Shown here piece by piece: positions 4,009-55,210 of a stretch of 64,000 nt of DNA. Positions within the stretch are counted from its first letter, which is position 1; each line of letters starts with the position of its first letter. Where the stretch lies: NCBI GenBank assembly GCA_000004985.1, contig GG738894.1; one strand, written 5' to 3'. Under the pieces are notes generated by a model. It saw nothing but the letters and a program-made list of their open reading frames with translations. It was not told the DNA's origin and searched no databases. The translations under genes and the position numbers were made by a program. The DNA is from Naegleria gruberi. Its lineage: Eukaryota.

Positions 4009-7000
4009 TCAAATAATGGAGTTTATTTCTTCAGTCTTGACGATTGCTCCCACATGATACTTATTGTCCAATAAATAAGTCTGAAGAATTCCCTTTCCTT
4101 TTACTGCGATACTACGCTCCTCAAATGTGAATTCTAAATCAAAAACTCTTTCATATGTTTTTCTTGACAGTTGAATTCTTCCAGGTAAACTAGTGCTTTC
4201 CATCCTACTTGCTGTAGTTATGGAAAGAAAATAAGAAAATCATTAAATAATTATTACCACACTTCAAACTTACCTGTGTTGATATTGTCTCCCCAAAGAT
4301 CGTATGCAAACTTCTTCTTTCCAATCACTCCAGCTGTTACACTTCCTGTGTGTATACCTATTCTAATATTTATCTGTTTTTCAACAGGCTTTCTTGAAGT
4401 AATGTTGTAGTTACGAATAACATTGAAACAATCAATGGAAAATCTAAGAATTCTCTCTGGATGATTAATGTCAACATTGTTTAACCCTGCACAACAAAAG
4501 TAAGAATCACCAATGGTTTTGATTTTTTCCACATTATATTTGTCAGTCAAACCATCAAATCCATCAACCACACAATTCAGTAATTGCACTAACTCTGTAT
4601 GTGTTAATTGTGAGGTCAATGCAGTGAATTCAACCATATCACTAAAGAAACAGGTGACATCTGGGTGTTTCTCCGCAATAAGAGATGCTCCAGCCAAAAG
4701 TTGACGAGCTACAGAGCTAGGTAGAATATTAAGAAGCATATTTTCCGATTTCTTCTTTTCTTCGTTTAGTAATAAAATTGCCTTCTTCTCTAAGGTGGAT
4801 TCTTTGATGAAAAATAATGTAATGTGTTTGTTTTCAAAGAATGTTACATAGATATTGACTGTTGCAGGGAAAGTCTTTTGATTTTTTCTGACACACTCAA
4901 GTTCAAAAGTTTCTCCTTTAGGGCAGGTTTTTGTTACTTGTTTTTTGATGGATTCGACTTCGTTCTTAACCAAAGTTTGGTGTTCTCTTGTGAATATTTT
5001 AATAGGTTTACCAATAACATCTTCGAGTTGATAACCAAACATTCTTTGAGCTGAAGGATTGAAAATATCCACTAGCATTGTATCATTACATGTAATTACA
5101 CCATCAACAAATGTGTTAAGAATTGTCACTAGTTTTGCATCTCGCTCTGACGTGACACCATTGTTGGTAAATAATTTGGATGGGTTTTCATTAGGTAGTG
5201 TTTTAAATAATGCAAAGTTTTTAAGTTTCTCGTTGAACACCAAAGTATCTATCGATAGGTAATCGAACATGATTCTCATTTGTTGTTCTGCATTAGCATA
5301 TTCACGGAAAATGTAATACATCGAACAAATCGAGCAAGTGACAAGTACAAAGCCAATTACAAAACTCGCTATCACATAATTAATATTTGGTACAGAGGCA
5401 TCAACAGCGAAAATATTTGCAAAATCAATCAATTTCATCGATGACAAGTTAAAAAGAAATAAAATCTTAAGTAAGGAAGTAATATGTTCCTTGATAGTCA
5501 CTGGTTGAAATAAAATTGTCTGGGCCAATAAATTTTGTTTCAACAATATTTGTGTTGATAATAATATATGTGTTAGCATTGTATCTATTCCAATGCCACA
5601 AGTGCTGTTAAAATGAGTGTCAGTTTCTGGAATGGTACAATTTGGATCGCCCTTAATCAAGTGGTCTGTACCGGGAAACATGCCTGCAACTACTGATTCA
5701 AAGGGTTTTGTAGTTGATCCGAATAAACACCAATCCCAATTCCTTTGAAGATTTGCTGCCTCTTGATAATATTGAAGAGTCATATTTAAAGCTTCATCCT
5801 CTGTTATCAATGGTATATCGTCAACATTTCTATAATAAGCATATAGTTCAGTACTGTAAAATGCTACATTTTGCAGATGCTTGGTAGTTTCAAATACGTC
5901 TTGTACATTTACAAAGGATTCAACCGAATAATGGGTATTGTCAAACAAGCCACATACGAATACTGCCGTACACACTCCAACTGTTAAAAATATTACTATT
6001 ATCAAAATGGGGAAACATATCTTATGTTTGAGAGGATCTACTTTTCCTGCATGAGTAATCACTTCTTGTGGTTGTTGTTCGCATAATGTGTGGTATATTT
6101 CACCAACTTCTGGTTTAGAGACACACTCTTTCAGTAGCTTGACATGATTTTTCAATCTAGAGAAAGTGAATCTTGAATATATCAAATATAATACACACAC
6201 TATTAACAAGCAAGGTAACACGGCTGCTGTGTAAATGATTAAAACATTCCTCGAATTCAATGCCTCATCTATATGAACTTGTGTGTAAGAATGACAAAAT
6301 AAAGAATATGCCTGTGTAAGGGTATTTTGATTTCTATAAAGAAACATGAACATAAAGGATGTGTAGGTTTGTAGTAAAGCTTCACTTGTTTCTGACAAGA
6401 AGCGATTTGCCAATAGTTTTAAAATCTTATTGATTTGAGAGAGTGGGTACTTGTTTGACTCAGTCAGGTTATATAAACCTCCTCCTGGTATTACAGTTGG
6501 AATTACTAATGAATAGTGGAAATCAGTAAATTGAGAGTAGATTTGAGGTGAAAACTTTGAGGCAAAAGCAACGTTTTCTAAATTGACTATCGATTGTGTG
6601 AAATATTCGACATGCTGTTTGTATTTATCCATGTCAAAATAAATATCATTCGTCCAATTATGTTCGATGGTGATATTTGATTGCATCCAGTGGTCAATAA
6701 TCTGATACCCTCTTCCTGAAAGTAATAAGTTAGTGACACAGGGTATTGTGGCACATGCCTCCTTAGAATGTAGCAAATTGCTTGTTGCTTGATTGGAATA
6801 AATCAGTGACAGCAAGAATGGAGTGATGAGAGCAACCAAGAACAGTATGCAAAAGCCAACAAATAGTATGATAAAAACAGTTCGGCGTGTTGGAGTTGCA
6901 AGAGCATTGCTATAAATCATCTTTCTTGTTTGTGGATCCAGTGTTTCAAATTCTTCTAACGTTTGCTCCTCATTTTCTCTCCCATCAGTGGTAATTTCAG

Positions 7001-8900
7001 ACACAGAAGATTCACCTTCAGCTTTTTTAGTGGATCTGTTGCATTCATTTTCTTCGAGTAAGTTTGCTTTGTTAAAATTCTCATTTGATAATTCTGGATT
7101 TGCTTTAAATGATACCAAATATTGTGCATATATTCTTAGTGCTGTTTTGTCTTGACTATAAAAAGGAACAAGGTTGTTAAATATACAGTCACACTCGGCA
7201 ACTAGCTTGGAGCTTCTAAAAATGACTCTTTCAATTTTTTCCATAATAATACTTTCTTTCAGAAACTCTTTCCAAAAATCCTTATGAAGAGCATAAAGTT
7301 CTTCGGTTTTTCTCCGAATTTTAGACAGTATTAATACCAGTTCTGACTTGGAATCATCTTCACAAAGATACGCCTCAATTTCCTTCTTCTTTTGGCACAA
7401 TGAATACGAAGAAACAAAATTTGCATACTTTGGTGTCATATTTTTTGTTAAAATTGAAAAAGCCAATGTACGTTCACCCTTCGTTTGATATGCCATTATT
7501 GATGCTGATACTAAGGGCAACCTCATACTGCTGTTTAAATCTTGTAAGGTTGCCTTGATAAATGCTATTATCCCTGAATGATACTTGCTTCGTTTAGGTC
7601 CTTTCATCATTTCAAACTTTAAAAAAAGACCCAATAGGTAAACAATTCTATCATCTTGGAGATTTAAGTTTTTTGAGACTGTATATGTTCCAGTGTCTGG
7701 TTCTTCTTTAAAAAACTTGTTCTTAAATTTATACATATTGTATCTTGTATAACATTCCATTGTCACACATCCAATTAAAGCCATCAATAGCATCAACCCC
7801 AGAGTAGCTGAAAACAATATTATTCCAAGAGTGTTATCGTTGGTCACATTGACAAAATATGTCACAAGACCAGATACACTTGTGGCCAGTCTACAGAAAA
7901 TGATACCACTAATAACAGTATTTTCAAATCTTCTTAGCATTGGTATTGTTTGAAAAACAAGTATTATCAATAGTAGAGTCGAAATTATGTGTACAATAGA
8001 TCTTAAATATGCCGTGTACGGAGGAATTAGATGATGAATGACAATCCCAACAACATTGCACAACGGAATAGTGGCCTGAAAGATAATATTGTCATTTAGC
8101 ATTGGGGAGTTGCTTAATGGATGAGAATTTGGTAGAATCAATATTGATAGACCAAGTACAATTATAAAAACAACTATTGAAAGCAATGATAATATCATCA
8201 GAGGAATGTTGATAGAATCGAAACAAGGGGAACCTGGGAATCGATTCAACACCATTCCATTAGGTGCCCGACTAAATGGAATAACTACAGCAAGTGGTTC
8301 AGGTTGCGTCAAGCCATAACTGCAGTCTACAAAGGAAGTTAACACGTATGTGACAGGTGCCGAGATCAATAAACAAGTGTAACATAGAATATGTACCACT
8401 TTTTTCAGGAGCTTCCTCCTGCTACTTACTCTTTTCACAGCAGTATTAGCCAAAATAAAACAGCACACAATTGCCACAATAGTGATCATAAAAAATACAG
8501 CAAGACCAAGGTTAGCATAATATGGAAATGTCCATGATGCAAGAGTTATTGGAAAGTTCAAAACTTTGATGATCCAACTAGCCCATACTCCAAATCTGAA
8601 AGACACTGGATTTAGTAACGGTATCCATACAAAACACCAAAACAATACAAGCTGTACGATGAGTTGCTTAAGAAACTCAATGGTTCCTTTTCTAATTTTG
8701 TTTGCCTGCATTGCAAACAAGAAGATAAAAAACTCATTCGCTATGGCAGACCCAAACTCTGATGATAGAGTAGAGCTCTGGCAAGTAATAGATGTAGAAA
8801 ATCCGTTTTGTTTTTTTTCATCCTTGTTTGTGTCCTTAGTTTTGTTTGGTTTCTCAATACTGATGGCTCCATTATGCTGAAGTCTTATATAGCCTTGCAT
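4009..8900 (-). CDS. multi-pass-membrane, PAS-containing class III adenylate/guanylate cyclase, paralog 1 (~1580 aa)
   Basis: Structure on the minus strand is join(4274..8900, 4009..4211). The intron 4212..4273 (GTAAGT...CAG, phase 1) rebuilds the canonical motif ...FAYDLWGDNINT|ASRMESTS...GRIQLS. There are two blocks of about 6 TM helices, then a PAS-like segment and a C-terminal cyclase catalytic domain with motifs FFSDMVEFT, IKTIGDSYF, RIGIHTG and ASRMES. The ATG at 8900 was chosen by comparison with paralog 20528..25928, although the ORF stays open to 9149. Confidence 0.8.
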
Positions 8901-8989
8901 TTCGATTTCAAACTTTGCATTGTCTAATTCAACTTCTTGTCTCAAATCATTTGGTATGAGATTATTATCCACATTGTTAATATTCAACT

Positions 8990-10211
8990 TTGGGTCTCTT
9001 CTGCTGTACATGAGCATGTAAGCATTTGTGGAATCGCCAATAATCTCATCATTTCCATACATGGATTCTATTTGAGATTTATCAATTTCATCAATATAAT
9101 TATCATTAAATTTAAACCATTTCCCTGAATGGAACGATCTTATTAACACAAAGTAATGCTTTAAAAAAGGTCACTAAAAAGCTAGCTATTTTACATACCC
9201 CTGTAAGTGCATCTCCAGAATGAATGATAACACTATAAAGATCAAATAAATGTTGCTGATCATCTACATATTTTGACATGTCCAACACAAAGGGAAAGGT
9301 AACTTTGTTTCCAAGCTAATACTACAATTACATTAATATGAACAAGTTCATACTTACCTTGACAGGAGTATTTGTTTGATAATCAACCCTCTTGAGTTGA
9401 AGTGTTAAAATGTAGGGAAGATGAGCCAATTTTAAATTCTTGACCGCATCTATTTTCTTATTTCCAAGCTCCTCACAACACCATTGATTATCTCCCTTCA
9501 TTTCCTCAGATTTTAAAAAACTTTCAATGGCCTCCTCGACACTGGACACATCCCGAATAGCCAATTGCAAATCCATAAAACTGTCCACTTTGGTGGTTTG
9601 ATATACTTCACCACTTTGTTTCTTCTCATCCACAGACTCGATATGATCTATTACAGTGCCACAAAACAGGTCGCTGAAGGATACATTGCTATCGTTATTG
9701 TAATTTTTTTGTGGTGGTGATGAATCAGTTTCTTTAGAATGGGATCCGTCAGTCAGCACGTCGAACAAGATCCTAAACACTTCATGAATATCGTGTTGAA
9801 CTTTTAAATCTGATGCTTGCCAGCCTAAGCATAGAAAAATTTTCGCACACGAATCAATCATATTATGTGTTGATAATGAAATCTAAGGACAATCGAAAAC
9901 TTACCAAATGAATTTGTTAACTGTGTGGTGTCCACTGAGTTTCTCTTTGATAAAGTCAAATAGGCAAACAAGCGTTGCAATTGATAAGGGACGCAATGGT
10001 CCTGGTCAGGATCATGCTCAGGATCGTACCTCCATTTGAAAACCAACTCACGAAATTTTGGTGTGTGATGCAGAGATTGTAGTAGAGAATTTAAATAACA
10101 TGTGGTTCCATTATTGGTGAGGCCAACAAAATGCTCTTCCTCTTGTGCACTACAAGATTGACGCCAGTTGGTGTTGGATGGTCCACTTGATGTTTCGTGG
10201 TTGTACTGCAT
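8990..10211 (-). CDS. USP7-like ubiquitin carboxyl-terminal hydrolase catalytic domain (no MATH domain); 3' end unresolved
   Basis: Exons on the minus strand: 9905..10211 (ATG at 10211; Cys box GLTNNGTTCYLNSLLQSL), 9358..9824 (SFGWQASDLKVQHDIHEVFRILFDVL ... LPYILTLQLKRVDY), 9199..9315 (LYSVIIHSGDALTG) and from 9158 downward (HYFVLIRSFHSGKWFKFNDNYIDEI...STNAYMLMYSRR). Introns are 9825..9904, 9316..9357 and 9159..9198, all with GTAAGT or GTATGT donors. The frame has no stop after the last USP motif and runs straight into the cyclase ORF. Confidence 0.65.
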
Positions 10212-11973: not shown

Positions 11974-13154
<1,181 letters not shown>

Positions 13155-20527: not shown

Positions 20528-23500
20528 ATGCAAGCCTCATCTAGTGGACAATTTGAATCCGATGGAGAGGGTTCTGATTTTTTGACAAATAACAATAATA
20601 TTAATGGTGGAGGTGGAGGAACCAATGGTGCTCCCTTAGCAAATCCACAACAAGCAATGAGTAATGTCGGAACGAGTAGTGTTGGTTCGACAGTTTCAAC
20701 TAATACCGATTCTAATCTTTCAAAGAATGTTGTGTCCATGTTTAGAGATCAATTCATTGGATTTATGATATCATTCAATGCAAAAGTATCGAGAATTTCC
20801 AAGCTAAAGTATGGTATCCTTAATATTTTGATATATGTGTACTTGTGGTACGTTACAATGGTACTCTCCTCTTGTCCTTCAAGAATTGATGAAGAAACAT
20901 CTGCATCTGCATCATCATCTTCAACAACATCTTCCTCACATCACTACTTGTGGGGAGAAATACCAGGTTGGATTCATAGAGCCTTATTCTATCCCATAAA
21001 TTTTGGCGTAGAACATTACCCTTACGAGCTAACATTGACAATATCTGCGCTATATCTGCTTGCTGAGGTTATTTGCATTGGACTCTTAGTTCTCTTTCAA
21101 GTGGCCAAGAATAAGGGAAGCAAATGGAGTGAAAAGATTAATTCAATTGCTTCCAAACTGATACTTTTCCTTATTGTGACTTCACATTTTGCATTGTGGA
21201 TTCATACAGTACCTATGGCACCACTCGAATCAATACCACTAGGACACGGTTCATCAACAATAACGAGTAGTTCATCATCATCAAAAACATCTTCTTCAGC
21301 AGAGGAGGACACTTATCTTTACTATTATCCTTCTCTTTCAATTAGTTCAACAGTGAATATTATTTTCATAGTGATTGGTGCACTTGGTGTGGTTTGCAAT
21401 GTTGGAGTGACACTGTTGGGATTCATTCTCACTGCAGAAACTGTTCCACCAATGAAGAAATATTCCTTATTTTCAATTGATAGAGTGGAGCCAACAGCTG
21501 TTCTTCTTTTCACAAATCAATTGAGTGTAATTGTTACTGTTATTGTAACTTCTCATTTGGCAGTCGTGTCGAGTGCATTCAAGATTGTAATCTCTGGAAT
21601 ATGCTTGATTTTCTTCATGAACAAAATACCCCACTACAGAAAGTGGGAGAATTCTTTAATGGTGGGAGTAATGTTTGGAAAGACTTTGGGAAGTATTGGA
21701 CCTCTTGTTTCTGATCTAATAGTCTCGGGCGAAACAAATGCAACTACTCTTGGAGGAGCACTAACTGGTGTCACTATTGGATTGCAAGTAATTGGATTCA
21801 TTATAGGATTCATTGGATTTTACATTTATCTAAGCATGATAACTAGGTCTGTTCGTAAATTCTTATTATCAGAATTTGAGGATAAGAAGAAGGATAAAAT
21901 AGGAGCACAACAAGCATTTGCCTATTTTGAAGAGAATAAGAATATGAAGAAGCTGTCACTCTATATCAAATTATCAATGGGAGAAAATGGTTCTGCAAAC
22001 TTTAATGTGGCCACTCGATTTGTGAGGAATATTGGTGTTTCCAGAAGTATGACCAATGTGGATTTCCTCATTACAGCAGCCATATTCTCTGCATTCCATC
22101 CGGATGTAGATGACCAATTTACATGCATTGCCAATGCCATTCATTTACTTCAGAGAGCTCAAAAACAACATCCATCACTCTCGTTCAAGTACATGATCAT
22201 GTTAAGGCATAAGGAAATTGAGGAGAATATGAATACCATATCTGCTATTAATATTGAATTGAGACAAATGTTACAGACATTGGATAAGAAACAACACTTG
22301 TTACAATATTTCCATAGAGAATTTTACAAGGAACTTTTGAATGAACATCCTTCATTGTCCAAGATGGAAAATATCAATAGAACTATATCCATTATAGTTC
22401 AGGATTGTGATCTCAAGTTTAGAAATTTACTAGTCTCCCATCCTAATGATAAAACCCTATTGAGATCGTACGCCTGTTACTTGGAAACTTGTAGGTGGGA
22501 GAAGGAGCTAGCAGCTGAATACTATGATGATGCCAATCAAATTGAGGAAGAAGAGGCAAGAAAACACCATCATAAGAAGGCAAAGAATAACTTTATGAGT
22601 AGTGACTTTTCAAAGAGAAGAGCCATTCCAACAGCATCAAACAAAGTCGTACCAATATCCAATATGGCTGCTAATTTCGATCGTAAAATTAATGCCTCAC
22701 TGGATTTTGATGTTGTGGAGAAATCGTTAGATCATAAACATGATGAAGAAAATTGGGAATCAGTATCAAATGCAGAGGAGTTATCTAAGAAGGAAGACTT
22801 GTTCAGAATTGCAATCAACACTGAGGATGACCATACTTTTACCAAAATTTGGTTTTCCATATTCACCATGTTCTCTATCATTGTCATTTCTGTAATTATT
22901 GGTTTTGGAATGGGCCAGCTCAAGATTACAACAGACAGAGTTTCACTGCAAGAGAAGGTTTGCTCACTGAGTGGAATTCCTTACCTCATTGTTTCACAAT
23001 TAAGATCAGTGCAGTCCATCTATAGATTCTCTTCCTCTTCGTGGGAGCAAACTCTCAAGGTACCACTGGTTGCAAATATAGCAAAGAATCAATTAAGCAT
23101 GTTGATGGAGAAGGTACAACATGTCAAAGATGCCTCAAACAATGGTGAATTTGTTCCCGAAGTTGTTGAAATGTACAATGAAGTTCGTTGGACGAATATC
23201 ATTCCTATTAAACAACAAACAGAGGAAACAAGCATTCCATTGTACCATAAAGTGAACGGATCGATTGCAGAGTTTGTCGAATCCATGTTGACACAAGCTC
23301 ATGAACTTGAGAAACAGTTTGATAATTTACATGTATTGAATGTTACCATGTCAAATTATAACTTTTTATACTAGTAAGTTTTATATCCTTCATTGAATTC
23401 TCTATAACGTGAAATAGTTATTTGGGAAGAACTGAAATGACAGAAGCTTTTGACTATTTTTGTTCTACCTTCATCAAGAGTTCAGAAAGCACAGAAATAG

Positions 23501-25928
23501 AAGGTCAAAAAGAGTTTTACATTCTCTGTGGTGTTTTGATGGGTACCTATGCTCTACTTGCTTTGATTTATGTAATTGTTTTGAGAACTCAGCTTTTACA
23601 AACATTGAGAATTATTAGATGTATATTCAAGAAGATTCCAAAAGAAGAAAGTGGCAAAATTTTTCATCGTTTTGATAAGAAACTCTATGATGAAATACAT
23701 AAGGAAAATAGAACAGTGTTGACACCTAAGAATCTCTTCCTTGTCACTACCATTTTGATTATTTTGATAACATTCCTTGTGTGTATATTGATCATTATTG
23801 ATTTCGAACAGGGATCACAAGAAATTATGTCCACAATGGTGACAGTCTCATCGCTAAATGATGTTATTACCATTTCTTCAAAGGTTACCTTTACGTTGAA
23901 TGAGTTAATCACAAAAAGTATAATCATGAATGAAAACTGGATTGATTTGAGAGATAGAAACTTGGAAGATTTGAAACAAGCTGCCATAGCATGGAGAGAC
24001 ATTACCATTGGTGGCAGTGAAAATAATTTCAAGCCAACAGTGTTTGGTATTTTACCTGAAATTGATGACTTGTTGGATGGAACCTGCAGCAATAAGACAT
24101 TCCAGGTGTCTGAACCTCTCAATTACACAACAGTCATGTCAGAATTGAGTTGCAGAGGAATGGATCAATTGTTGAATATATTTATGGATAGATCCTATGA
24201 ATTGAGTCAAGATTTTTATTCTAATTACTATGATAAGGAAAGTGCTATGGAGTTGTACTTTACTTACATTTATTTCCTCTCTGTAACTTTCTCAGACAAG
24301 TTATTGGACTTGATAAGTGTGTATGTGAATTTCGCAAAGCATCCAGAAGTTGCCTTAGCAGCGGCATCGACTTCTGTTGGTTTGATATTAATTATCATGT
24401 TGAGCTACTTTGCCTATTCAAATATTTCATCCTATTGGATGGAAAAGCAAAATTTAAGAAGTTTGTTAAATTATATTAATTGGGAATTGATTGAACAAAT
24501 AGACGATTTGAAGCAGTATGCAGTTTCACATAGAATTAAGGAAAATACCTATCAAAGTTTGGAAAAGGTTTCTAGCAAAATTTCCAAGTTCAATGTTTTC
24601 AAATTTGAAGATGGTGACGATGAAGAATCCAACGATCCATTGGCCATGACCAAATCTATTCTATTGGCTGCAGCTGATGGCAGTATCGTTTGTAGTTCAA
24701 ATGGCTCTATTACAATTTTTAATCCAGCAGCTGAAGACATGTTTGGTTTGAAAGGAAGCGAAGTCATGGGAACACACATCACTGATCTATTCTCCATTCA
24801 AGATCAACCTAAAATTGCAAATTTGCTCAAATCCATGAATAGTTCACTAAGTGCCTTCTCTGAAACATTCGAAGCAACAGCTATCCGAAAGAACAAGACA
24901 ATCTTCTCTGTGAAACTCTCAATGAGTGTTTGTATCTTTATGAAGAAGGCCATTGTTTCATGTTTCGTCAAGGATATTACCCCAGAGAAGAAACAAAATG
25001 CTCTCATTGCTGAAGAAAAGAAGAAGAGTGAAGATTTATTATTGAATATTTTACCACTTCCAGTCGCAAATCGATTAAAACAAGGTGAAACATTCATTGC
25101 TGAAAAGTTTACAGATGTCACTGTATTCTTTTCTGATATGGTTGGATTTACCAAAATGTCATCAGGAATGGAACCAGATCAATTGGTTAAAATGTTGAAT
25201 ACCATCGTTAATGAATTTGACAAGCTGACAGAAAAGTATTCCATTGACAAGATTAAAACTATTGGAGACGCCTATTTTAGTGTAGGTGGTTTGCATGCTT
25301 CCAAATCAAGTGATCACCCAGAAAGAATGTTAAGAGTAAGTTGTAATAAGTTTACAAAAAAACGCAATATTCACACAAAACATAGTTCTCAATTGATATC
25401 TTTTTCTTTTTGAACAAATTCAACACAGAGACCAACAACAAGATTAACCTAAGAGTTGGCCTTCATACTGGTGGTTGTGTGGGTGGTGTAATTGGCAGTA
25501 AAAAGTTTGCCTATGATTTGTGGGGTGATACCATTAATACTGCCTCGAGAATGGAATCTACATCCATTGCTGGAAGAATTCAATTATCCAGATCTACCTA
25601 TGAGGTAAGTTTCTTTCTAAAAAGATTACAAGATTATTTCTAATACTATTTTCACCTCAATGTTTAGAGAGTTTTTGATTTGGATTTCCAATTTGAAGAA
25701 AGAGATGGAATTGAAGTAAAAGGAAAAGGATTAATGAAAACCTATCTAGTCCATCAAAAACACCATCCAATTGCTTTTGAAGAAGAACACGAAATGACTC
25801 CAATTATTATTGAACCACAAACTTGTCATCCTCCATTATTGGAATCAAACAACATGTCAACACCACTTCTTGAGGAACATTTGGAAAACAATGATGAAAC
25901 CCTAGAGTATACCATTGTCCAACACTAA
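20528..25928 (+). CDS. multi-pass-membrane, PAS-containing class III adenylate/guanylate cyclase, paralog 2 (~1730 aa, 4 exons)
   Basis: join(20528..23373, 23418..25335, 25431..25604, 25668..25928). Introns: GTAAGT..ATAG, GTAAGT..AGAG and GTAAGT..TTTAG; phases were checked against the ORF-track frames. Domain order is TM block, TM block, PAS-like, cyclase. Cyclase motifs: FFSDMVGFT, IKTIGDAYF, LRVGLHTGG, FAYDLWGDTINTASRMESTSIAGRIQLS. The 19-24 aa helix between HPER and the RVG motif is missing when compared with paralog 1. Confidence 0.75.
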
Positions 25929-26002
25929 GAAAAACCCACAATAAAATTCCATTCCTCAAACCATAGGGATGGAGTCATGTCATTATTCACCCATCAAAAA
26001 AA

Positions 26003-27808
26003 ATGTATCATCATCACAACAGTAGTAGCAGTGGATATGATAATGATAAATCCACAACACCCATTCCCATTGGAGGTGGCAACAACAGCAAATCTCCATC
26101 ATCGTCATCATTAAAATCCTCACCACCAACCTTTTCCTCCTCTCCCAATACTTCAACTTTTCATTCCATAAGTAAAAATCAAGCATCAGCAGTTCCTTCA
26201 ACATTGGTTTTTACTAGAAATTCATCGACAGTATCACCTTCTAGTCCTATTAGTGCTAGTTATAGTGGTGCAAGTGGACAGGTTCATTTTCAATCATCAA
26301 ATTTAACATCAAATGTGACAAGTGAAAGGAAGACTACCATGTTTCATTTTGGAAGAAAGAAATCAGTATTGAAGGCTACTCCGATTATATCACCTCTTTT
26401 GTTACCAACTCCTGATCAATCTAATAATTCGTTTAGTTTAGGTTCGAATAATGCCTTGACAAGTACAAGTAGTGGAATGTCTTCACAAGGATCTACTGGA
26501 AATTTGGAAAGTGTTGGGCAATCATTATTGGAAAATTCTACAATGGCTACTTTTGCTTCATGGGAAGAAGTTAATGGATCCATGCTCAATTCATTCGATT
26601 CATTTTCTTCAGTTTCGTCCAATTCAGGAAGTTTCGATTCAAATTACGAAGAAAGTTCGGAACCTTCTAAAAGATCAAGTGTTGGGAAATCTAGAAAATT
26701 CACAACATTTATTTCGAAAATATTTGGAAAGAATCAAGAAAATGCAATTCAATCAACCTCTCCAAAATCGAATAGAAGCAAAGCCAAGTTTCTCAATTCT
26801 CTATCCGAAACTGATGATTTTTTCAGGGATAGTGCAATGGGAATTGAACCAAGTCCTTCACCATCAACCAGTTCAGGAAGTTTGAAAGGCCACCATGCAG
26901 CATCCAATTCACTAGAGCAACAAGATAGATCATTTACAGATTTGGACACCAAACAAAAATCAATGTTTAATGGATGGTTCCAAGAGAAGGCCTCCATTTT
27001 GGAAGATTTATTCGACAAGGAGGGCTGCGTGTATTTTTACAAGAATCAAATCAAACCAGGTCAGAATAAGAAGAGATCTTCCACCACTCTTAATCTCAGT
27101 TCGAATAGTTCAAGTAGTAATGAAGGAAATGACGATGATGGAAATGGTGATCTCTCCAGGGAGGAAGATGTTTTTGTTGAGAGATTTTTTAGTTGTAAGA
27201 ATTCGGCCATTACAATTTTCGAGAAGGGAACTAAGGATTCTCCTGTCAAGCATTCATTCTCATGGAATCAGAATGTTACATTTAGTTTGGTTCCTACTGA
27301 AAAATCATTTGATACAGTTGTTGCCAAGTCGATTAAGAAAGCCACACGATACAACAGGTCACAATATTTCCTATTTGAAATTAGAGTGGAACAGGGTGAT
27401 AATTTCTATGTGATGGATCCACTCATTCTTGTTGGATTAGTCAGAACTAAAGAGGAACGTGATGATTGGGCTGATTTATTCGAAATTTACTCAATTTACT
27501 CATCACTCAATGTGTTAACAGAGGACGATTTCACACTCTCATCAACCATGACAAGAGAGGAAACTCTTCGTGATTATTTCATTCAGGAATATGAACTTTT
27601 CGATGAATATCAAAATGAAGTGAGAGAACAAGGTGAAAATCAACAAAATTTCAATAACAGAGGAGAAACTGTAATGGACCCTCGATTGTCAACTATTGAA
27701 AATCCATTCGAAGAGACAAATGCATTCCAGAGAGAAATGGAAAAGTCATATACTTTTTTGATTCAATCATTTGATCCATATCTAGCAATTAATTCTCAGT
27801 CTCAATAA
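26003..27808 (+). CDS. Ser-rich hypothetical protein with a C-terminal PH-like segment (601 aa)
   Basis: Complete ORF with a long S/T/N low-complexity N-terminus. The region ITIFEKGTKDSPVKHSFSWNQNVTFSLV...FLFEIRVEQGDNFYVMDPLILVGLVRTKEERDDWADLFE resembles a PH/GRAM-type beta-sandwich with a C-terminal helix. This is a weak call. Confidence 0.4.
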   Translation: MYHHHNSSSSGYDNDKSTTPIPIGGGNNSKSPSSSSLKSSPPTFSSSPNTSTFHSISKNQASAVPSTLVFTRNSSTVSPSSPISASYSGASGQVHFQSSNLTSNVTSERKTTMFHFGRKKSVLKATPIISPLLLPTPDQSNNSFSLGSNNALTSTSSGMSSQGSTGNLESVGQSLLENSTMATFASWEEVNGSMLNSFDSFSSVSSNSGSFDSNYEESSEPSKRSSVGKSRKFTTFISKIFGKNQENAIQSTSPKSNRSKAKFLNSLSETDDFFRDSAMGIEPSPSPSTSSGSLKGHHAASNSLEQQDRSFTDLDTKQKSMFNGWFQEKASILEDLFDKEGCVYFYKNQIKPGQNKKRSSTTLNLSSNSSSSNEGNDDDGNGDLSREEDVFVERFFSCKNSAITIFEKGTKDSPVKHSFSWNQNVTFSLVPTEKSFDTVVAKSIKKATRYNRSQYFLFEIRVEQGDNFYVMDPLILVGLVRTKEERDDWADLFEIYSIYSSLNVLTEDDFTLSSTMTREETLRDYFIQEYELFDEYQNEVREQGENQQNFNNRGETVMDPRLSTIENPFEETNAFQREMEKSYTFLIQSFDPYLAINSQSQ

Positions 27809-37870: not shown

Positions 37871-40800
37871 TTAAATACTGATATTTTCAGCAGTTGGTGA
37901 AGAACAACTGTCATCATTTCCACTCAACATTTGAATCTTTCTCTTCATTAAATTATTGTGTTCCATCAGATCTAACAAGTGACGATTCAATTTTTCACCA
38001 GGTACAACTGTTGTTCGAGGTGTGATTGGAGAGGTGGTTATAATTGGTTCTTCTGGAGTATCGTGTAATTGTGAAAGTGTACTCTCAATTGATTCAATGG
38101 TTGTCTCTTGTGATATTTCTGGTTCAGGTAGAACTGCAGTTCTGAAAGTGAGAAGTGGAGAAGCAACACGAATATCCAATAATTGCATACTCATTCTCAA
38201 CAATTCAGTTTCGTACGATTTCATCTTGGTTCTCAAATTAGTTGTTTGAATGTCCTTCAATTCTGAAAGCTCTTCTGATAATTCCTTAAATTGATTTCCA
38301 AATTGATTCTCCACTATTTGGAATGCATCCTTATCTCCCTTATCTGCCAATAAATTTCTAAAAGTCTCTAGGAGAGACTGTAATTTGAATATTGTCATGT
38401 CAATCTCTTTGGTTTTTTGTTGAATATCATTTCTGAACTTGTCCTTCAATGAACTCAATTTGGAGTATAATACATTAACCAAAGATGATTCATTGGTTGG
38501 AAATTCTGAGGCATCTACTGAATTTGAATTCGATGGTGAAGTAGCTTCTTCCATCGTTGAGGAGGTAGTTGTTGGAGTTGTTGCTACTGTAGGACTGGAT
38601 GTGGCCTTTGAGTTTAGAACAGGGAATGAATTTTGACGTTTCAAATCCTTAAATCTTCTCTCCTTCAATGAATTTGGAATAACCAAAAACAAGGTTGTGT
38701 TCTTGAGACCTGACTTGGCAGTGACACAATTGTCCAATCTCTGAACCAGTGATTCAATAGTATTAGTATCTGGAGGCAATGTATTATTTTGCTTTTCAAT
38801 TGCCAAATTTTCCATTACTTGAGCTTCTGCTAGTGTCTGACCTCCCTGTGCATATTGAGCTATCATTGAGGCTCTCCTGATGGCTTGCAGTGTTGAGTCG
38901 GTGAACTTTTTAGAACGAGCAGAGATACCCATTCGACAACGAAGTCCTCTAAATAAGAGTTTGATATTATTCTTCTGATAGGTGCAAATTCCTTCGAGTG
39001 AGAGAAGAGAATCTGGCCAATCGGCATCCATCATTTTAGTTTGAACTAGGAGTGAGAATTTGAGAGCTTGTCTCGCAGTTTCAAATCCACACACTACTGA
39101 ATCACTCACAATATTGTGGAATTCATCATGTTTCACAGCAGGTGTAGTGTCCATTCCCATATTTTCCTTGAGACATCTCCTCAAAACATCAAAATAGATT
39201 GAAACACTCTTGGTAATGTCCTCGTGTGGAATACTCCACAATTGATTACATCCTTGCAAGTCACAATACACAAAATATTTCAATCTCTCCTCAATGTCAA
39301 AGAATTTAGTTTCGTGAGAAGCATTGAGTGAAACTTCTGGAATGGACATTTTACAATATCCCTCCTTTTCAGCTTCTATAATTTCCAAAATAGAGTACAA
39401 ATCTTCCATATCCTTCTTTACGTGTTCAATTTCTTCCCTAACTGTTGCTTGTTGCATTTTCAATGAATCTTCGAGTTGTTTAATTTTCATGTCCAATTTT
39501 TCTTGTTGAATGGAGGTGGCCAATGAATTCTCAGAGAAGGGTTTCGTTGGAGAATAGGGAACCGAATTGGAATTATTCATCACAGAGAGGTTATTATTCG
39601 ATGAGAACTTTTTAACCATCAGTGGTGAAATGGTAATGGTATTGTTACCTCCACTATTCTTTCGAGGAGGAGATTCTGGAGGCAATTGTGGAAAGACAAT
39701 TTGAGGAGGCGTATTTTCAGAATCGATTCGAGCCGATCCATTGAAAGATCTTGCAGATTTGATTGAAATTGGTGCAGAGGAAACTGAATCATTGCTTCGT
39801 GTCGTAGTTTGTCCATTCACCAACGAGTCAGGAACCAAATAACTCTCATTCTCATCAATTAAAAAGAAGGTGTCATATTTTGGAGCTGTTGGTACAGTTT
39901 TAGAGGTTTGCCTCTCTCGTGTTGAAATACTATCGGTAAGCCACATTGAACTGATTTGCATTCTCAATTTGGCTGTCAATACTAGAGGTGAATTTGATGG
40001 AGCTTCAATTGACAATTTAACTGGAACGAGAATGGTTCTACTCATTGAACCCACTCCACAATAAATCATATGTGGAGGAGTTACAAAATCTGTCAAATTC
40101 AACTTGACAAAACCACTTCTCTTATCACTTGTAATTCTTCCACTGCCACTACTTTTCAATTCTCTAATTTCCAAAACGAGGGGTTTATCTTCCAATAACG
40201 ATTGCATATTCTTGACATAGAATGGTAAAAATGGATCTTCTTGTGAACCACTTCCAGATCCTGAACCATTATTCGAATTTAACATGTTAATTATTTCAGT
40301 TAATGGTTTTTCCTTCTTTGGTTTAAAATCACACACAAAATCATATTCATAATCCTTAAAATCTGCCAAATAAATAATGGAATTCTTTTTAGAGTTTGGT
40401 GAATTTTGATTTGTCGAGTTTGGATTTGTCGATGGAGACATGGATCGACTCCAACACGTATTAATATAATCATAATCTTCAAAAATTGCATCATTGGAAC
40501 ATGTTTTTGAAATGACATTTGCTGGTTCAGTTGCTCCACCAATTACGAAACTATTCGATCCACTTCTACTAAAAAGTGATGAAATACTTGATTCTTCCTC
40601 ATTATTTTGCAATACTTTCCAATGAATGGAATATCTGGATTGTAACAATTTCATTAGGGCATTAGAAACTGCAATCGATTCAGAATCTTCTGAACGTTGA
40701 GAAGCACTTGAAATTCCACTATTTGTACTTCTGGAAGTTTCATTTCCATTTTGTGGTTCATTATTACTGTAATTGTGGAACATTTTGTGTCCTAGTGTGT

Positions 40801-41137
40801 GAATTGAAACATTTCCACTATTATTATTACCAAAAGATGATGAACGTCCCAAATTGGAGTTTCCACCACTTTCGTTTACTTTTTCTAATGATGATGCAAG
40901 TGTCATTAAATCAAAATCTTCCAATGCGAATATATGAATGTTAAATAGACATTTTAATTGTGTAGGATCACTATTATTCGAATTTGATTTAATGGCTGCA
41001 GTAACTTTGCTGTTGGAACGGGCACGTGGCAGGTTAGAGGTTGATGATGAAGATGATGATGGTTTCATATGTCGTTGAACATCGAGACGTCCTTCGTTGG
41101 CGTCGTTTATACTGCCGAATCTAAATAATCTCTTCAT
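37871..41137 (-). CDS. large S/N-rich coiled-coil protein with a divergent class III nucleotide-cyclase homology domain (CHD)
   Basis: 1088 aa, starting at the ATG at 41137. The mid region FVYCDLQGCNQLW...VSDSVVCGF...LRCRMGISAR...TDSTLQAIRRASMIAQYAQGGQTL follows the CHD motif order (FxFxDIxGFT ... GDxxM ... RIGIHxG ... NxAARxxxxAxxGQIL), but catalytic positions are substituted. The N-terminal part is C2-like; there are long coiled coils. Confidence 0.45.
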   Translation of the reverse strand: MKRLFRFGSINDANEGRLDVQRHMKPSSSSSSTSNLPRARSNSKVTAAIKSNSNNSDPTQLKCLFNIHIFALEDFDLMTLASSLEKVNESGGNSNLGRSSSFGNNNSGNVSIHTLGHKMFHNYSNNEPQNGNETSRSTNSGISSASQRSEDSESIAVSNALMKLLQSRYSIHWKVLQNNEEESSISSLFSRSGSNSFVIGGATEPANVISKTCSNDAIFEDYDYINTCWSRSMSPSTNPNSTNQNSPNSKKNSIIYLADFKDYEYDFVCDFKPKKEKPLTEIINMLNSNNGSGSGSGSQEDPFLPFYVKNMQSLLEDKPLVLEIRELKSSGSGRITSDKRSGFVKLNLTDFVTPPHMIYCGVGSMSRTILVPVKLSIEAPSNSPLVLTAKLRMQISSMWLTDSISTRERQTSKTVPTAPKYDTFFLIDENESYLVPDSLVNGQTTTRSNDSVSSAPISIKSARSFNGSARIDSENTPPQIVFPQLPPESPPRKNSGGNNTITISPLMVKKFSSNNNLSVMNNSNSVPYSPTKPFSENSLATSIQQEKLDMKIKQLEDSLKMQQATVREEIEHVKKDMEDLYSILEIIEAEKEGYCKMSIPEVSLNASHETKFFDIEERLKYFVYCDLQGCNQLWSIPHEDITKSVSIYFDVLRRCLKENMGMDTTPAVKHDEFHNIVSDSVVCGFETARQALKFSLLVQTKMMDADWPDSLLSLEGICTYQKNNIKLLFRGLRCRMGISARSKKFTDSTLQAIRRASMIAQYAQGGQTLAEAQVMENLAIEKQNNTLPPDTNTIESLVQRLDNCVTAKSGLKNTTLFLVIPNSLKERRFKDLKRQNSFPVLNSKATSSPTVATTPTTTSSTMEEATSPSNSNSVDASEFPTNESSLVNVLYSKLSSLKDKFRNDIQQKTKEIDMTIFKLQSLLETFRNLLADKGDKDAFQIVENQFGNQFKELSEELSELKDIQTTNLRTKMKSYETELLRMSMQLLDIRVASPLLTFRTAVLPEPEISQETTIESIESTLSQLHDTPEEPIITTSPITPRTTVVPGEKLNRHLLDLMEHNNLMKRKIQMLSGNDDSCSSPTAENISI

Positions 41138-42078
41138 TGTTTCAAAGTTTCGTATTGTTTCGAATAGAGTCTGGAGAAAGTGGTTTTGTAATTTTTGTTA
41201 TAATTGATGATGATGTGATGATAACAAACCTCTCACAGGAAAATTGACTCACAAATCCGCTTGATGATTATTCGAAACTAACTGATTGTTGCCGAAAGAT
41301 GAGTGAGGGATCTTTTTTTGAGAGGGAAAATCGTCTTATTGCTCTAACGCCGGTCACTTGTCAACTCTGCAAGGTTATCAATCTTGGCTGAAAATTGACG
41401 AACCATTCAAATGTACTAAAGAAAAGGAAGTTTCTTACAATAAATACAAAAATTTGATGAGAAGAAGAACATTTCATAAATTTAAATGACGATCATTTTA
41501 ATGGTTTGGAGAAAATTCTACCATTAATTCAGATCTTTGGTAAGGGATTAATTCAGAGTCAGGTTTTTCTTCAATATTTCAAAAACAATGCAAAATTTAT
41601 TCATCTCATTGCAACTTACATTTTGACGATGAGTTTAGATATGAACAAGTTCTCAAATTCGAATGAGAAGAAAACAACACAACATTATATCCTATACGAA
41701 AGCTCCTCATCACTCGAGATTCACAAAAATTGGATTCATTAATCCCAAATCCACCTTCTTGAAACTCATTTATTCAACAAAATGCTAATTTCCTAATAAT
41801 AATACTATAGTATTTTTGAAATCTGACTTCAAATTATGAATCCTCACATTGACATTCCCCTTAAGGTGGCAGCATTCTCAAAATCATGTTGAAATGATAA
41901 AGAACGAAGTGGTTCAATAAATTATTTTGGATTTGACAGCAAAATACTAATTATTATTATTGTCTTTCAAATGTTTTTGAAGAATGAAGATTTCACCACC
42001 AGTATAGATAGAAGTTTTGGATTTTGGTGATGAATAATCATCCAGTCATTATTCGTATAGGATAACACAACAAAAAAA

Positions 42079-48334: not shown

Positions 48335-48831
48335 CACAAGAGAACATGCAACCCAACCGTAACAACTGTAAAATAAAACACCTTTTAAAAAGCGGCCCCG
48401 CATAACTGTGGAGTAAAATCCACTCACCGTAGGATGTACAAATTGTTAATTCGTTACTGCATTCCCAAAGTCTCTCCTACCAACTCCGTAATTTTTCAAG
48501 TTACAACTCCCACTATTTCATCTATGATAAACTCCTTTTGGCTTGATACCCCCAACGCGAATAGAATTAAAACATTGAAATTCTCCAACTAACTCTCACA
48601 ATTTCAAAAAAAAACACACAAGCTTCCCGCCCAAGGAATCAAAACGAGAATCACATTACACTCTCAATTATTGGCAAAGAAGATACTACCAGTAAGAAGA
48701 AAATATCTTTTAAAAGTATCTGCTACAATCGAACAAGTTCAATAATTGCTTTTTGCATTGGGAACAATTAAATCCTCAAATTCTCCTTCCGATCAAAACT
48801 CCTAGATTTCTCCCAACAAACACTCATAAAC

Positions 48832-51024
48832 ATGATAAGGAAGAACTCTAATTTATCATCATCATCATCTTCATGGCTATGCATTAGCATGTTGATCATG
48901 ATGCTAACTCTCGTATTCACCTCTCAACATGTCCTCTCACTCATGAACACAACCACAGTTGTCAGTGGTGAATATCCTGCCTCTGTACAGACAGGCACGA
49001 TGAATATCTATTGGAAGTTCCATAATAAGGTTACAGGCTTGCTTCAAGATGACGATCTTATTGAAATTGCAATTGTTGCCAAGACAAAGGGTTGGTTGGC
49101 TATTGGTTTGGATTTTAACAAGACTGGTATGACACAAGCTGATTGTTACATTGGTTTTTATGATCAGACAAATTCAAGACCAGTTCTCTATGATTTTTGG
49201 TTACCTGGAAAGTCAATTCCAAAGAATGATTCACTTTTTTTAGGTCAAGATGACATTTTACAATTGACTGGTTCATTAAAAGATGGAACCACTACTTTGA
49301 AATTCTTGAGAAAGATTGATACTGGTGATATTCATGCTGATCACCCAATTAGAAATAGAACTATTGGTGTTAGTTATGCTTTCAATATTAACACAATTGA
49401 TGTCACTCAGAAACACACTACTCATGGCGATTTTTTCATTAATTTCGTCACACAAAAAGGTGCATTGAATTTGGCACCTGCTCCATTGATTCAATTCCAC
49501 ATTATTGCAACTGCATCTGTTGCCATTTTGATGGCTGCTATTGGTTTGTCTTATACTTTCATTTCAATGAAGGAGAAGAATCGTGTAATTAGTTTAGTTT
49601 TCCACACCAAGTTTACAGGTTTGATCAAGAACCCAATTCTCGGTTCCATTTTCAATCCAATTTTGGAGTTGACCATTGGTGAAATTACTCTCATCTTGTT
49701 CCATCTCATGCTTACTGCTGTGTGGTTCTGTTTTGGATTTTTCAACAGTACTTCAGCAAACGTTGGTAAAGGATTTGCCTATGCCATTATTATCAATTTG
49801 ACTGCTACCATCTTGCCAATTACTAGATATTCTGCATTTGTCTTTGTTTTTGGTATTTCATTTGAAAGAGCTGTCAAGTATCACAAATGGGTTGCTAGAT
49901 TAACTCTTCTTATTGCTACTATTCACGGTATTTTGATGACTGTTCACTTGGCAGACAATGGAAGTCTTGGTAACATTCTTACTGCATCAGCAAATGATTA
50001 CATCTTATTTGGATTAATTGCTTGGATTGCCATGGTCATTATGACTATCTTTGCTTTGGAACCAATTCGTAGAAAGTTCTGGGAATTGTTCAAGGTAATT
50101 CACATTATTCTTGCCCCAGTTGTCCTCGTCATGTCTTCAATCCACGCCAAAGGTTGGGAAAGAACTCTCCCAGTTCTTGGTATTGCCATGGGTTTATTAG
50201 TTATTGATCATTTGCTCAGAATTATCTTTGGTTATATCATGCCAACTAAGGTTATCAAGATGGAATATGAGGAAAAGACTGGAATTACTACAATGGTATT
50301 TGAAAAGCCAACTATTAGTATGTGGTATATGGAAAGTTTGGGAATGGGCAAGTTTGTCTATGTCTACATTCCAGGTGTTAGTTTCTTCCAATCTCATCCA
50401 TTCACTATCAGTAGTTATTCTAAATTAGATAGTTCTATTGAATTCACATGTCATGTTAAGAATTTAGGAAGGGGTTGGACAAAGAAATTGGCAGATTTTG
50501 CCATGAAGAGAAAATACTCTGCTGCCTCAATCTTTGCCAGAGTTGAAGGTCCATACGGTAAATTATCAGTTGATTTGAATACCTATTCTACTGTTGTATT
50601 GATTGCTGGTGGTATTGGTGTTACTCCAATTAATGCAATCTACAATGAAATTACAAGTAATAAGGTTAATGCTTCCAAGCAAAATATCTATGTTTTGTGG
50701 ACCATGAAGGATGAACACATGATACAATTATTCCCTAATTTGACTCAACCATCTTCTCAAGTCAAACAAAGCTTTTATATTACTGGTGAAAATCATAAGC
50801 AAGTTAACGAATCAGATACCAGCTATCAATATCATTACAATATGAGACCAAACTTTGGTAAATTCTTCCACATGGTTTCTGAAACTGTTGGATCAGATAA
50901 TAGTGTTGCTGTAGTTGTTTGTGGACCAACTCAAATGAATGTTGATGTTTATAATGCTGCAAGAAGAGTTGGAAGGGAAGAGAGAGTTAATTTCCATGTT
51001 CACAGAGAAACCTTTGAATTGTAA
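48832..51024 (+). CDS. DOMON domain + ferric reductase/NADPH-oxidase-type transmembrane flavocytochrome
   Basis: 730 aa. Signal peptide, then a DOMON-like beta-sandwich (YWKFHNKVTGLL...IEIAIVAKTKGWLAIGLDFNKTGMTQADCYIGFY...TTTLKFLRKIDTGD). After that comes a ferric-reductase TM domain with heme-His motifs (HKWVARLTLLIATIHGIL; ...VIHIILAPVVLVMSSIHAK), the FAD-binding HPFTISS and the NAD(P)-binding motifs GPYG and IAGGIGVTP. Confidence 0.8.
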   Translation: MIRKNSNLSSSSSSWLCISMLIMMLTLVFTSQHVLSLMNTTTVVSGEYPASVQTGTMNIYWKFHNKVTGLLQDDDLIEIAIVAKTKGWLAIGLDFNKTGMTQADCYIGFYDQTNSRPVLYDFWLPGKSIPKNDSLFLGQDDILQLTGSLKDGTTTLKFLRKIDTGDIHADHPIRNRTIGVSYAFNINTIDVTQKHTTHGDFFINFVTQKGALNLAPAPLIQFHIIATASVAILMAAIGLSYTFISMKEKNRVISLVFHTKFTGLIKNPILGSIFNPILELTIGEITLILFHLMLTAVWFCFGFFNSTSANVGKGFAYAIIINLTATILPITRYSAFVFVFGISFERAVKYHKWVARLTLLIATIHGILMTVHLADNGSLGNILTASANDYILFGLIAWIAMVIMTIFALEPIRRKFWELFKVIHIILAPVVLVMSSIHAKGWERTLPVLGIAMGLLVIDHLLRIIFGYIMPTKVIKMEYEEKTGITTMVFEKPTISMWYMESLGMGKFVYVYIPGVSFFQSHPFTISSYSKLDSSIEFTCHVKNLGRGWTKKLADFAMKRKYSAASIFARVEGPYGKLSVDLNTYSTVVLIAGGIGVTPINAIYNEITSNKVNASKQNIYVLWTMKDEHMIQLFPNLTQPSSQVKQSFYITGENHKQVNESDTSYQYHYNMRPNFGKFFHMVSETVGSDNSVAVVVCGPTQMNVDVYNAARRVGREERVNFHVHRETFEL

Positions 51025-54000: not shown

Positions 54001-55210
54001 CACGAGAATAGACAGTTCCCTTTGAGTAGTGGAATGGAGAATTGGCTTCAGGTTGAGGACTCTTCAACATGGAGAAGTGAGCTTGAGCAAGGGCGAGAAT
54101 CATGAAAACAATGCTTGCCCAATTTCTGTCCAAGAGTGCCATCAATCTCAACCCCATCCAAGCAACACCAAAAGCCATAAGAGGAGAACCAATCAATTCA
54201 AGTTTAGGATAAGAATCTCTATCAAATAAATATTCTAAAGTTCTACGGTCAAAGAATAAATTATAAACTTTTCCAAACATGACAATTTTGTAATTGTCAT
54301 CCATAACAGCACTGCTATTACCTGCTACTGCTGCAGGAGTAGTCAATTGTTGTTGAGAAACATTCACTGGATTAATGGCAGAAGCAGGTGGTGCATCATT
54401 ACTCGATGAAGCACGATTTCCACTATTATCAGAAGAGGATGGATTGGACTTTCCTTCCTTCTCTTTCATAATTCTATTATATTCATCGACATTGACTGCC
54501 ATTTCATACGAATGAACTTCTCCAAACTCATCAACGTATTCAAAGATGGCTGTTCTCATCTCTGGTTGTCCAGAATTTTCATCAGATGGTCCATCATATT
54601 GTGGAATGGATGGTGAGCTAGCTGCTGATGTCGATGGTGATGATGCTGGTGAATTGACTCTTGGTGATTCAACAGATTCCTTCTCTTCCACAGTGACAAT
54701 GACATCATCTGTCGAAGCAACTCCTCCATCATTATTCACAACAGCAGCATCCTTACTAGTTGTCGTTGATGAGGATGATGACGAAGAGGAGGATGAGGAA
54801 TCTCCATCATTATTCTCTCCATTCATTGCTCCATTCTCCTGTTGCTTCTTTTCCACATCATCTTGAACAATGACTAAATTATTGTCATTGTCATTATGAG
54901 CAGCAGCAGAAGAACCATTGTTATTACTATGATCATTATGATATTCAATGGTAGGTTCATCAGCAATGATTGGTTTGCTTTCATCAACGTTACTTGATAA
55001 AACACTTGTATTCATATTTGGAGCATTGTCTGCCTTGTTGTTGTCATTGGTTGTTGGAATGTTTCTGCCGACTAATCCTTTGGAGTGAGTATCAAAGTAG
55101 TGATGAAAGTAGGAATTGAATGATTTGATGGAGAGGAAGAAGAGAAAGATGATGGAAGCATAGATAATCTCGGCAAATAGATTTCCAAAGCCAAATACCT
55201 AATTATGTAT
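51083..55210 (-). CDS. Pecanex-like large multi-pass membrane protein (5' exons unresolved)
   Basis: ORF 51083..53839 (918 aa) joins ORF 53927..55015 through the intron 53840..53927 (GTAAGT...ATCAG, phase 2), which restores ...TRVPEP|I|VVIYGVNLHFG. The 55015 frame stays open for about 60 hydrophobic codons upstream of its Met, back to a TAG|GTATTTGG acceptor-like site near 55200, so further 5' exons are likely. There are 12 or more TM helices and a C-terminal globular region. The Pecanex assignment is from memory of family motifs and is tentative. Confidence 0.4.

Follow-up and report, generated by a model that had tools for sequence, protein, structure and literature searches.

Does one gene of Naegleria gruberi encode a deubiquitinase and a nucleotidyl cyclase as a single protein, or do two genes lie so close together here that their boundary is hidden? 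The question arises on the minus strand of the 64-kb stretch analysed (64,000 nucleotides (nt) of contig GG738894.1, called the window below). Between positions 10211 and 4009, the exons of a ubiquitin-specific protease (USP) and a membrane-bound cyclase share one open frame that is free of stops across their junction. We conclude that 10211-4009 is probably one five-exon gene, in which a USP47-type deubiquitinase is joined to a cyclase with 12 transmembrane (TM) segments and TPR and PAS domains. This reading is favoured because M384, the methionine at which a separate cyclase could begin, falls within a USP47 helix; because there is no stop, GTAAG/GTATG splice donor or AATAAA at the junction; because no exons for the C-terminal part of USP47 are present; and because the USP part is an intact, old paralogue. 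The first-pass annotation had offered both a fusion and two overlapping genes, leaning slightly towards the latter. Further analysis favours the fusion over the lean to two genes.

The sequence of the window is eukaryotic and rich in AT (GC about 34%), and its introns are short and of the GT..AG type. The minus-strand frame that holds the last USP exon runs open from 9170 to 4257 (1638 codons, no stops), so that the continuity from USP to cyclase first noticed is confirmed; the other two frames of exon 4 contain 120 and 134 stops. The spliced model has a coding sequence of 5979 nt, or 1992 amino acids (aa), and M1 is the first ATG downstream of an in-frame stop at 10289-10287. All four introns are canonical (GT..AG, 40-80 nt), and their removal rebuilds, in order from intron 1 to intron 4, the motifs SFG/W, PVK/LGNKVTFPF, ALTG/HY and NT/ASRMES (the slash marks the splice). 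The four USP exons from 10211 down to 9158 thus stand as first drawn. The cyclase frame was also correctly described as open to 4274, but the gene does not end there, as a further intron and exon follow. The components of the gene model are as follows.

9905-10211, minus strand: exon 1, with M1 at 10211-10209, the Cys box GLTNNGTTCYLNS, the oxyanion-hole residue N33 and the catalytic C38 (10100-10098); matches positions 1-85 of the Pfam UCH model
9825-9904, minus strand: intron 1, 80 nt, GTAAGT..TAG; removal rebuilds the conserved SFGW
9358-9824, minus strand: exon 2, central part of the USP domain
9316-9357, minus strand: intron 2, 42 nt, GTAAGT..TAG; splicing gives a colinear alignment with USP47 through ...PVK/LGNKVTFPF
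9199-9315, minus strand: exon 3, up to the first part of the His box (HSGDALTG)
9159-9198, minus strand: intron 3, 40 nt, GTATGT..AAG; splicing joins ...ALTG/HYFVLIRS in the His box
4274-9158, minus strand: exon 4, 1628 codons without a stop, encoding the end of the USP part, the linker, 12 TM segments, a TmcB-type TPR domain, a PAS domain and most of the cyclase domain
4212-4273, minus strand: intron 4, 62 nt, GT..AG
4009-4211, minus strand: exon 5, ending at the terminal TGA at 4011-4009

Database searches with the protein place its N-terminal part in the USP47 family. All of the top 120 matches are USP47 or USP47-like proteins, headed by the USP47s (1139-1168 aa) of N. fowleri, N. lovaniensis, N. 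gruberi and Willaertia magna at 50-53% identity, and these top matches span only about the first third of the query. Among solved structures, the best sequence match is to the catalytic domain of USP47 (8itn, 225 bits), followed by USP7 at 151 bits. The protease is therefore nearest to USP47, with USP7 second; the initial assignment to the USP-type deubiquitinases holds, whereas its description as USP7-like does not. Structure prediction with AlphaFold gave a predicted local distance difference test score (pLDDT) of around 90 over most of residues 31-390, and a Foldseek search of the PDB with this model returned USP47 (8itn) and USP7 entries with E about 1e-30 and target-normalised TM-scores of 0.78-0.88. 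Two features make up this part of the protein.

9006-10127, minus strand, broken by introns 1-3: USP (peptidase C19) catalytic domain, residues 29-348, with C38, H298 (9158-9156) and N315/D316 (9107-9102)
8874-8951, minus strand: USP47-derived post-catalytic helix, residues 367-392, containing M384 (8900-8898); pLDDT about 81-95 in the AlphaFold model

The catalytic domain is complete. When spliced residues 1-462 were scanned, the Pfam UCH model (PF00443) matched over its full length (1-254 of 254) at 185 bits against a cutoff of 23.9, comparable to the 198 bits scored by the canonical USP47 of N. gruberi. Each of the residues N33, C38, H298, N315 and D316 occupies a column that is invariant in an alignment of 24 USP47 sequences. 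The conserved motif STNAYMLMYSRR, first located at about 8990, lies at 9032-8997. With its catalytic residues intact, the domain is predicted to be an active deubiquitinase.

The fused copy resembles USP47 as far as the post-catalytic helix, the catalytic domain ahead of it being complete and including the Cys box, the His box and the FND motif. Beyond that point it departs from USP47. Other USP47s are about 1100-1400 aa long in total and carry PF19718, PF25985 and ubiquitin-like domains, which the fused copy does not have: the C-terminal region of some 700-800 aa is absent, and the protease is attached to a membrane protein. In tblastn comparisons with six USP47s, homology ended at 8895 for four of the six and at 8841 or 8823 for the others, and no USP47 C-terminal homology was found anywhere within the window. 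The gene structures also differ, in that the USP47 gene of Willaertia is intronless (3492 nt, 1163 aa; JBEGDK010000064.1, 10001-13492), whereas the fused copy has three introns in its catalytic domain.

The cyclase part occupies about 4.9 kb; the first estimate of 1.6 kb or more is too small as written, and probably meant 1.6 thousand residues. Its features, from the N-terminal end, are listed below.

8685-8768, minus strand: N-terminal cytosolic motif of the cyclase family, residues 428-455, LSSEFGSAIANEFFIFLFAMQANKIRKG, including M447 (8711-8709); aligned with N. fowleri and environmental members
7746-8684, minus strand: first membrane block, residues 456-768, with seven strong and one weaker hydrophobic segments making 8 TM (hydropathy scan)
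7044-7328, minus strand: TmcB-type TPR domain, residues 908-1002 (Pfam PF25474, 37.6 bits against a cutoff of 27)
5304-6893, minus strand: second membrane block, with TM9-TM12 at residues 1053-1087, 1266-1299, 1337-1371 and 1551-1582 (hydropathy scan)
4803-5105, minus strand: PAS domain, residues 1649-1749 (Pfam PAS_9 50.7 bits, PAS 28.1 bits)
4063-4676, minus strand, split by intron 4: class III nucleotidyl cyclase domain, residues 1792-1975 (Pfam Guanylate_cyc)

The match to Guanylate_cyc (PF00211) reaches 125 bits against a cutoff of 21.9, with model positions 3-132 in exon 4 and 136-182 in exon 5. Inspection of the spliced protein by eye identified FSDMVEF, KTIGDSYF and NTASRMES, which comprise the metal-binding Asp pair and the transition-state Asn/Arg motif. 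The second membrane block contains two large loops with Cys residues and N-x-T/S sites.

Hydropathy analysis found eleven strong segments and one weaker segment, arranged 8+4. Clusters of positive charge can be read from the sequence before TM1 (KIRKG), after TM2 (KRVSSRRKLLKK) and after TM6 (MLRRFEN). Because the tail before TM1 and the loop between TM2 and TM3 are strongly positive, and the segments are arranged 8+4, both ends of the protein are predicted to be cytosolic. The positive-inside charges thus fit a cytosolic N-terminus, so that a USP domain placed there would face the cytosol, as it would need to do in order to work.

Relatives of the cyclase part were sought with HMMER in an exhaustive comparison against 1.8 billion cluster representatives, with a query that extended from the last USP exon into the membrane region. 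About 100 family members were found, and those with names are Naegleria cyclases. The best is FDP41_001627 of N. fowleri (P0133/P0279), with 36% identity over the searched N-terminal region; over the same region NAEGRDRAFT_81665 of N. gruberi (P0136) is 30% identical. A four-sequence alignment shows that the motif LSSEFGSAIANEFFIFLFAMQANKIRKG directly precedes TM1. The alignments of the relatives start at about residues 405-440 of the fusion, and upstream of this the relatives have N-terminal tails of their own, consisting of 14-190 low-complexity residues. None of the roughly 100 family cyclases has a USP domain or any other N-terminal domain, and no protein among the 1.8 billion representatives matches both the USP and the membrane segments, in keeping with the earlier remark that a deubiquitinase-cyclase architecture was unfamiliar.

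The window holds a second member of the same family, referred to here as paralog 2. This is a multi-exon TM/TmcB-TPR/PAS/cyclase gene at 20528-25928 on the plus strand, which has its own ATG, about 85 residues before TM1, and no USP. Across the membrane part its identity with the fused cyclase is only about 20-27%, and no identical protein was present among the matches fetched for it.

We next consider the junction itself. Sequence derived from USP47 extends to residue 385 or beyond, probably to about 403, and the cyclase-family sequence begins at about residue 417-428, leaving 14-44 codons between the two regions of homology. The linker lies here.

8787-8870, minus strand: junction linker, residues 394-421, GAISIEKPNKTKDTNKDEKKQNGFSTSI, rich in K, N and D and predicted to be disordered (AlphaFold); residues 404-416 match neither parent family

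Only two ATGs lie in frame between the USP domain and TM1. One encodes M447 (8711-8709), which is inside the conserved family motif, and a start there would cut the motif. The other, the methionine first noted at 8900, is M384 (8900-8898), and no other ATG lies in frame from the USP domain up to the N-terminal motif of the cyclase. M384 aligns with L, V or I in the orthologous USP47s and lies within the helix at residues 367-392 of the AlphaFold model. For these two reasons it looks like USP47 sequence rather than an ancestral cyclase start. The USP frame is not closed by any stop belonging to it, and M384 is the only start available to the cyclase motif. The apparent lack of a terminator for the USP gene, remarked on at the outset, is upheld: there is no stop and no GTAAG or GTATG splice donor in 9045-8640, and neither AATAAA nor ATTAAA occurs in 9160-8500.

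The history of the USP part bears on the same question. It is 50% identical to the full-length USP47 of N. gruberi itself (P0003). A neighbour-joining tree built from 404 columns with 200 bootstraps places it as the sister of the entire Willaertia and Naegleria USP47 clade, with 100% support for the group that includes the fused copy, 99.5% for the clade that excludes it and 0% for a pairing with N. gruberi USP47. Its branch is longer than those of the other USP47s. By the evidence of the alignment and tree, the fused USP is thus an old or fast-evolving paralogue of USP47 and not its orthologue. Two candidate explanations were rejected on these grounds: a mis-assembled piece of the canonical USP47 is ruled out by the 50% identity and the position outside the clade, and a recent duplicate or fresh pseudogene by the identity, the tree position and the intact frame.

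Despite about 50% divergence at the protein level, the fused USP is free of stops, frameshifts and broken splice sites. A sequence that had diverged this far as neutral debris would be predicted to have acquired several of each, and we therefore regard it as maintained. If the USP domain has been kept intact then it must be translated, and the sole frame available for this runs into the cyclase. On this reasoning a full-length fusion protein is predicted to be made.

Several observations weigh against a single fusion gene or against details of it. Comparison with other species lends no support, the fusion having been seen so far only in N. gruberi. N. fowleri, N. lovaniensis and Willaertia gave no instance of the same continuity, which the first-pass annotation suggested looking for in related genomes. 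All three have a single full-length USP47 and no second, short USP47-like protein among their annotated genes, and the nearest cyclase locus in N. fowleri has no upstream USP and shares no flanks with the window. Within the fused USP, 78% of the conserved family columns are retained, compared with 85-98% in 14 other USP47s, which could mean relaxed constraint; the substitutions at these columns are mostly conservative, and the figure fits a changed and somewhat relaxed selective regime. No N. gruberi protein from 4009-10211 was found in collections of 5.8 billion and 15 billion proteins. The locus appears to be unannotated, or modelled otherwise, in the public N. gruberi proteome. Neighbouring genes do have entries, to some of which ENA/Logan adds further members, and so expression of the gene may be weak or absent under the conditions sampled. 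Finally, the count of 12 TM segments hinges on the one weaker segment, at residues about 655-675.

The alternative that survives best, which we nevertheless consider unlikely, is that the locus yields two products. A promoter inside the last USP exon would give a cyclase-only mRNA starting at M384 (1609 aa), with the fusion minor or absent, and the USP exons would serve mainly as upstream sequence or give an unstable non-stop transcript. A start at M384 would leave about 72 residues before TM1, which is inside the family range of 14-190, and paralog 2 has its own ATG and no USP. The roughly 100 residues first counted ahead of the TM block of paralog 2 had been taken as an argument for two genes, but with family tails varying between about 14 and 190 residues the argument is weak. 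Two further points count for two products: genes on the same strand come as close as 75 nt in this genome, and the fusion is absent from the other sequenced heteroloboseans examined. Set against this is the position of M384 in a USP47-derived helix. A USP without a stop could be functional only as a fusion, yet it has stayed intact through a long divergence. The composition of the junction is also coding-like, with 35% GC compared with 27-31% in flanking spacers, and codon scores favour the fused frame over about 9130-8770 and are weak or mixed beyond; both of these are weak tests. Neither the 1992-aa nor the 1609-aa model has an exact entry in the 15-billion-protein collection.

A second alternative is that an artefact, either a base-calling error or a chimeric join, hides a USP stop and a cyclase start. 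A run of eight A residues (A8) is present at 8818-8811, exactly in the linker (codons KDEKKQ), and is the only obvious site for a frame-changing length error; the gain or loss of one base there would bring the USP frame to a stop near 8741 or 8734. Also in favour of an artefact, the chance that a non-coding spacer of 14-44 codons contains no stop and keeps the frame is 2-15%. However, a frameshift at A8 would give no sensible two-gene model, because the cyclase motif (residues 428-455) would be left without an upstream ATG. A chimera with the real USP47 is excluded by the 50% identity and by the position of the fused copy outside the clade. The N. gruberi reference is, we assume, a Sanger assembly in which homopolymer errors are uncommon. 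Taken together, we consider an artefact very unlikely.

The least credible of the alternatives is that the USP exons are a functionless relic, a decaying partial duplicate of USP47 that happens to lie upstream of the cyclase and in frame with it. The C-terminal 700-800 residues of USP47 are indeed gone, and the retention of conserved columns is the lowest of the 15 sequences compared. However, a copy that has diverged by about 50% from every USP47 and still has no stop, frameshift or damaged splice site in 385 codons does not look like a decaying one, and it keeps the catalytic N/C/H/N residues, the full-length UCH match and a confident fold. A cyclase nested in an intron of a USP47 gene was ruled out by the lack of USP47 C-terminal homology in the window and by introns of only 40-80 nt.

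We therefore return to the single fusion gene. In the encoded protein, residues 1-392 would form the USP47-type catalytic domain and post-catalytic helix, and a disordered stretch of about 30 residues would link them to a complete cyclase body. It may have originated from an old duplicate of USP47 that lost the C-terminal ubiquitin-like domains. The truncated copy would then have fused in frame with the 5' end of a cyclase gene, whose own start was either replaced or absorbed.

The predicted topology suggests how such a protein could work. The deubiquitinase would be tethered at the cytosolic face of the membrane, beside the cytosolic loops of the cyclase, and could act in cis to strip ubiquitin from the cyclase itself or from proteins close by. 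The cyclase would then be protected from endocytosis and degradation that depend on ubiquitin, and its residence time in the membrane would be set in this way. The proposal draws on the topology and on a precedent from engineered proteins, in which fusing the catalytic domain of a deubiquitinase to a protein blocks its ubiquitination and its ubiquitin-dependent sorting into multivesicular bodies (Stringer and Piper 2011, PMC3172180). Those fusions were artificial and used viral UL36 or yeast domains, whereas the Naegleria fusion is natural and its effect is argued by analogy. More tentatively, and with the odds against it, the protein could be a truly bifunctional enzyme, in which the USP deubiquitinates its own cyclase and so sets the lifetime of this receptor at the membrane, or in which the binding of ubiquitin or substrate by the USP and signals sensed by PAS regulate each other's catalysis. 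Such an enzyme would provide a direct, hard-wired link between the ubiquitin system and cyclic AMP/cyclic GMP signalling, which has not been described for any cyclase.

If the fusion is real, then it would be a natural counterpart of the engineered deubiquitinase-fusion trick that makes proteins immune to ubiquitination. At least 81 cyclases have been counted in the Naegleria genus pangenome (PMC9928731), and the fusion would suggest ubiquitin-dependent turnover as a main control point for this greatly expanded set of receptor-type cyclases. Natural gene fusions often reveal protein partners. A compact USP47 catalytic domain lacking the regulatory ubiquitin-like domains could in addition show how far the core works alone. 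The locus deserves a curated gene model, as it is seemingly absent from the public N. gruberi proteome.

Other genes in the window are described here for completeness. Several correspond exactly to known N. gruberi proteins: adenylosuccinate lyase (ADSL, 58150-59649, 100% identical over 500 residues), pirin (EFC40196), a BTB/BACK protein (EFC40122) and persulfide dioxygenase (EFC40121), the last three being encoded on one contig of 499,907 nt. These exact matches place the window in N. gruberi and reject an unsequenced heterolobosean, possibly Acrasis kona, as its source. A further neighbouring gene present in the protein collections is EFC40131. The stop of paralog 2 is separated by 75 nt (25928-26003, plus strand) from the next ATG on the same strand, which begins a Ser-rich open reading frame (ORF) of 601 aa at 26003-27808 (plus strand) whose exact sequence is not in the protein collection. 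At 12037-13154 (plus strand) there is a papain-family, cathepsin-like cysteine protease, recognised from translations only, in two ORFs (12037-12516 and 12582-13154) presumably separated by a short intron. The gene at 48772-51021 (plus strand) encodes a NOX/ferric-reductase-type protein with an N-terminal DOMON domain (DOMON, Ferric_reduct, FAD_binding_8 and NAD_binding_6). Of two minus-strand ORFs at 51086-53869 and 59768-62176, one has a pecanex C-terminal domain (294 bits) and the other is a SUV3-type mitochondrial RNA helicase. Two more long ORFs on the minus strand, at 37874-41197 and 53930-55198 (1108 and 423 codons from stop to stop), have no Pfam match.

As far as we have found, the combination of USP and cyclase is new in the databases and literature searched, while both parent families are well known. 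Literature searches returned no description of a USP-cyclase fusion, and scans of metagenomes with the junction protein and with the family alignment gave no match. Apart from the USP domain, the USP47 locus of Willaertia has nothing in common with the window, and the neighbour of that gene is not a cyclase. We know of no cyclase with a ubiquitin-protease partner, and none appeared in any of the database searches made.

The closest known systems each share one aspect of the Naegleria protein. The Naegleria TmcB-TPR/PAS cyclases are colinear with the fusion from residue 417 onwards, through the motif, 8 TM, TPR_TmcB, 4 TM, PAS and cyclase; the fusion differs from them in having about 400 residues of USP47 catalytic domain ahead of the tail. 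Among animal deubiquitinases, USP30 is held in mitochondria by an N-terminal TM helix and USP19 in the endoplasmic reticulum by a C-terminal one. Both therefore present a USP domain at the cytosolic face of a membrane, where their substrates are limited to neighbours. They have a single anchor helix and no second enzyme, whereas the Naegleria anchor would be a 12-TM sensor cyclase and its protease is of the USP47 type. Finally, the P-type ATPase-cyclases of protists (P0127 and P0128, with P-type ATPase and Guanylate_cyc Pfam matches) provide a case in which a class III cyclase is joined to a large, unrelated module; in the Naegleria fusion that partner would be an N-terminal ubiquitin protease.

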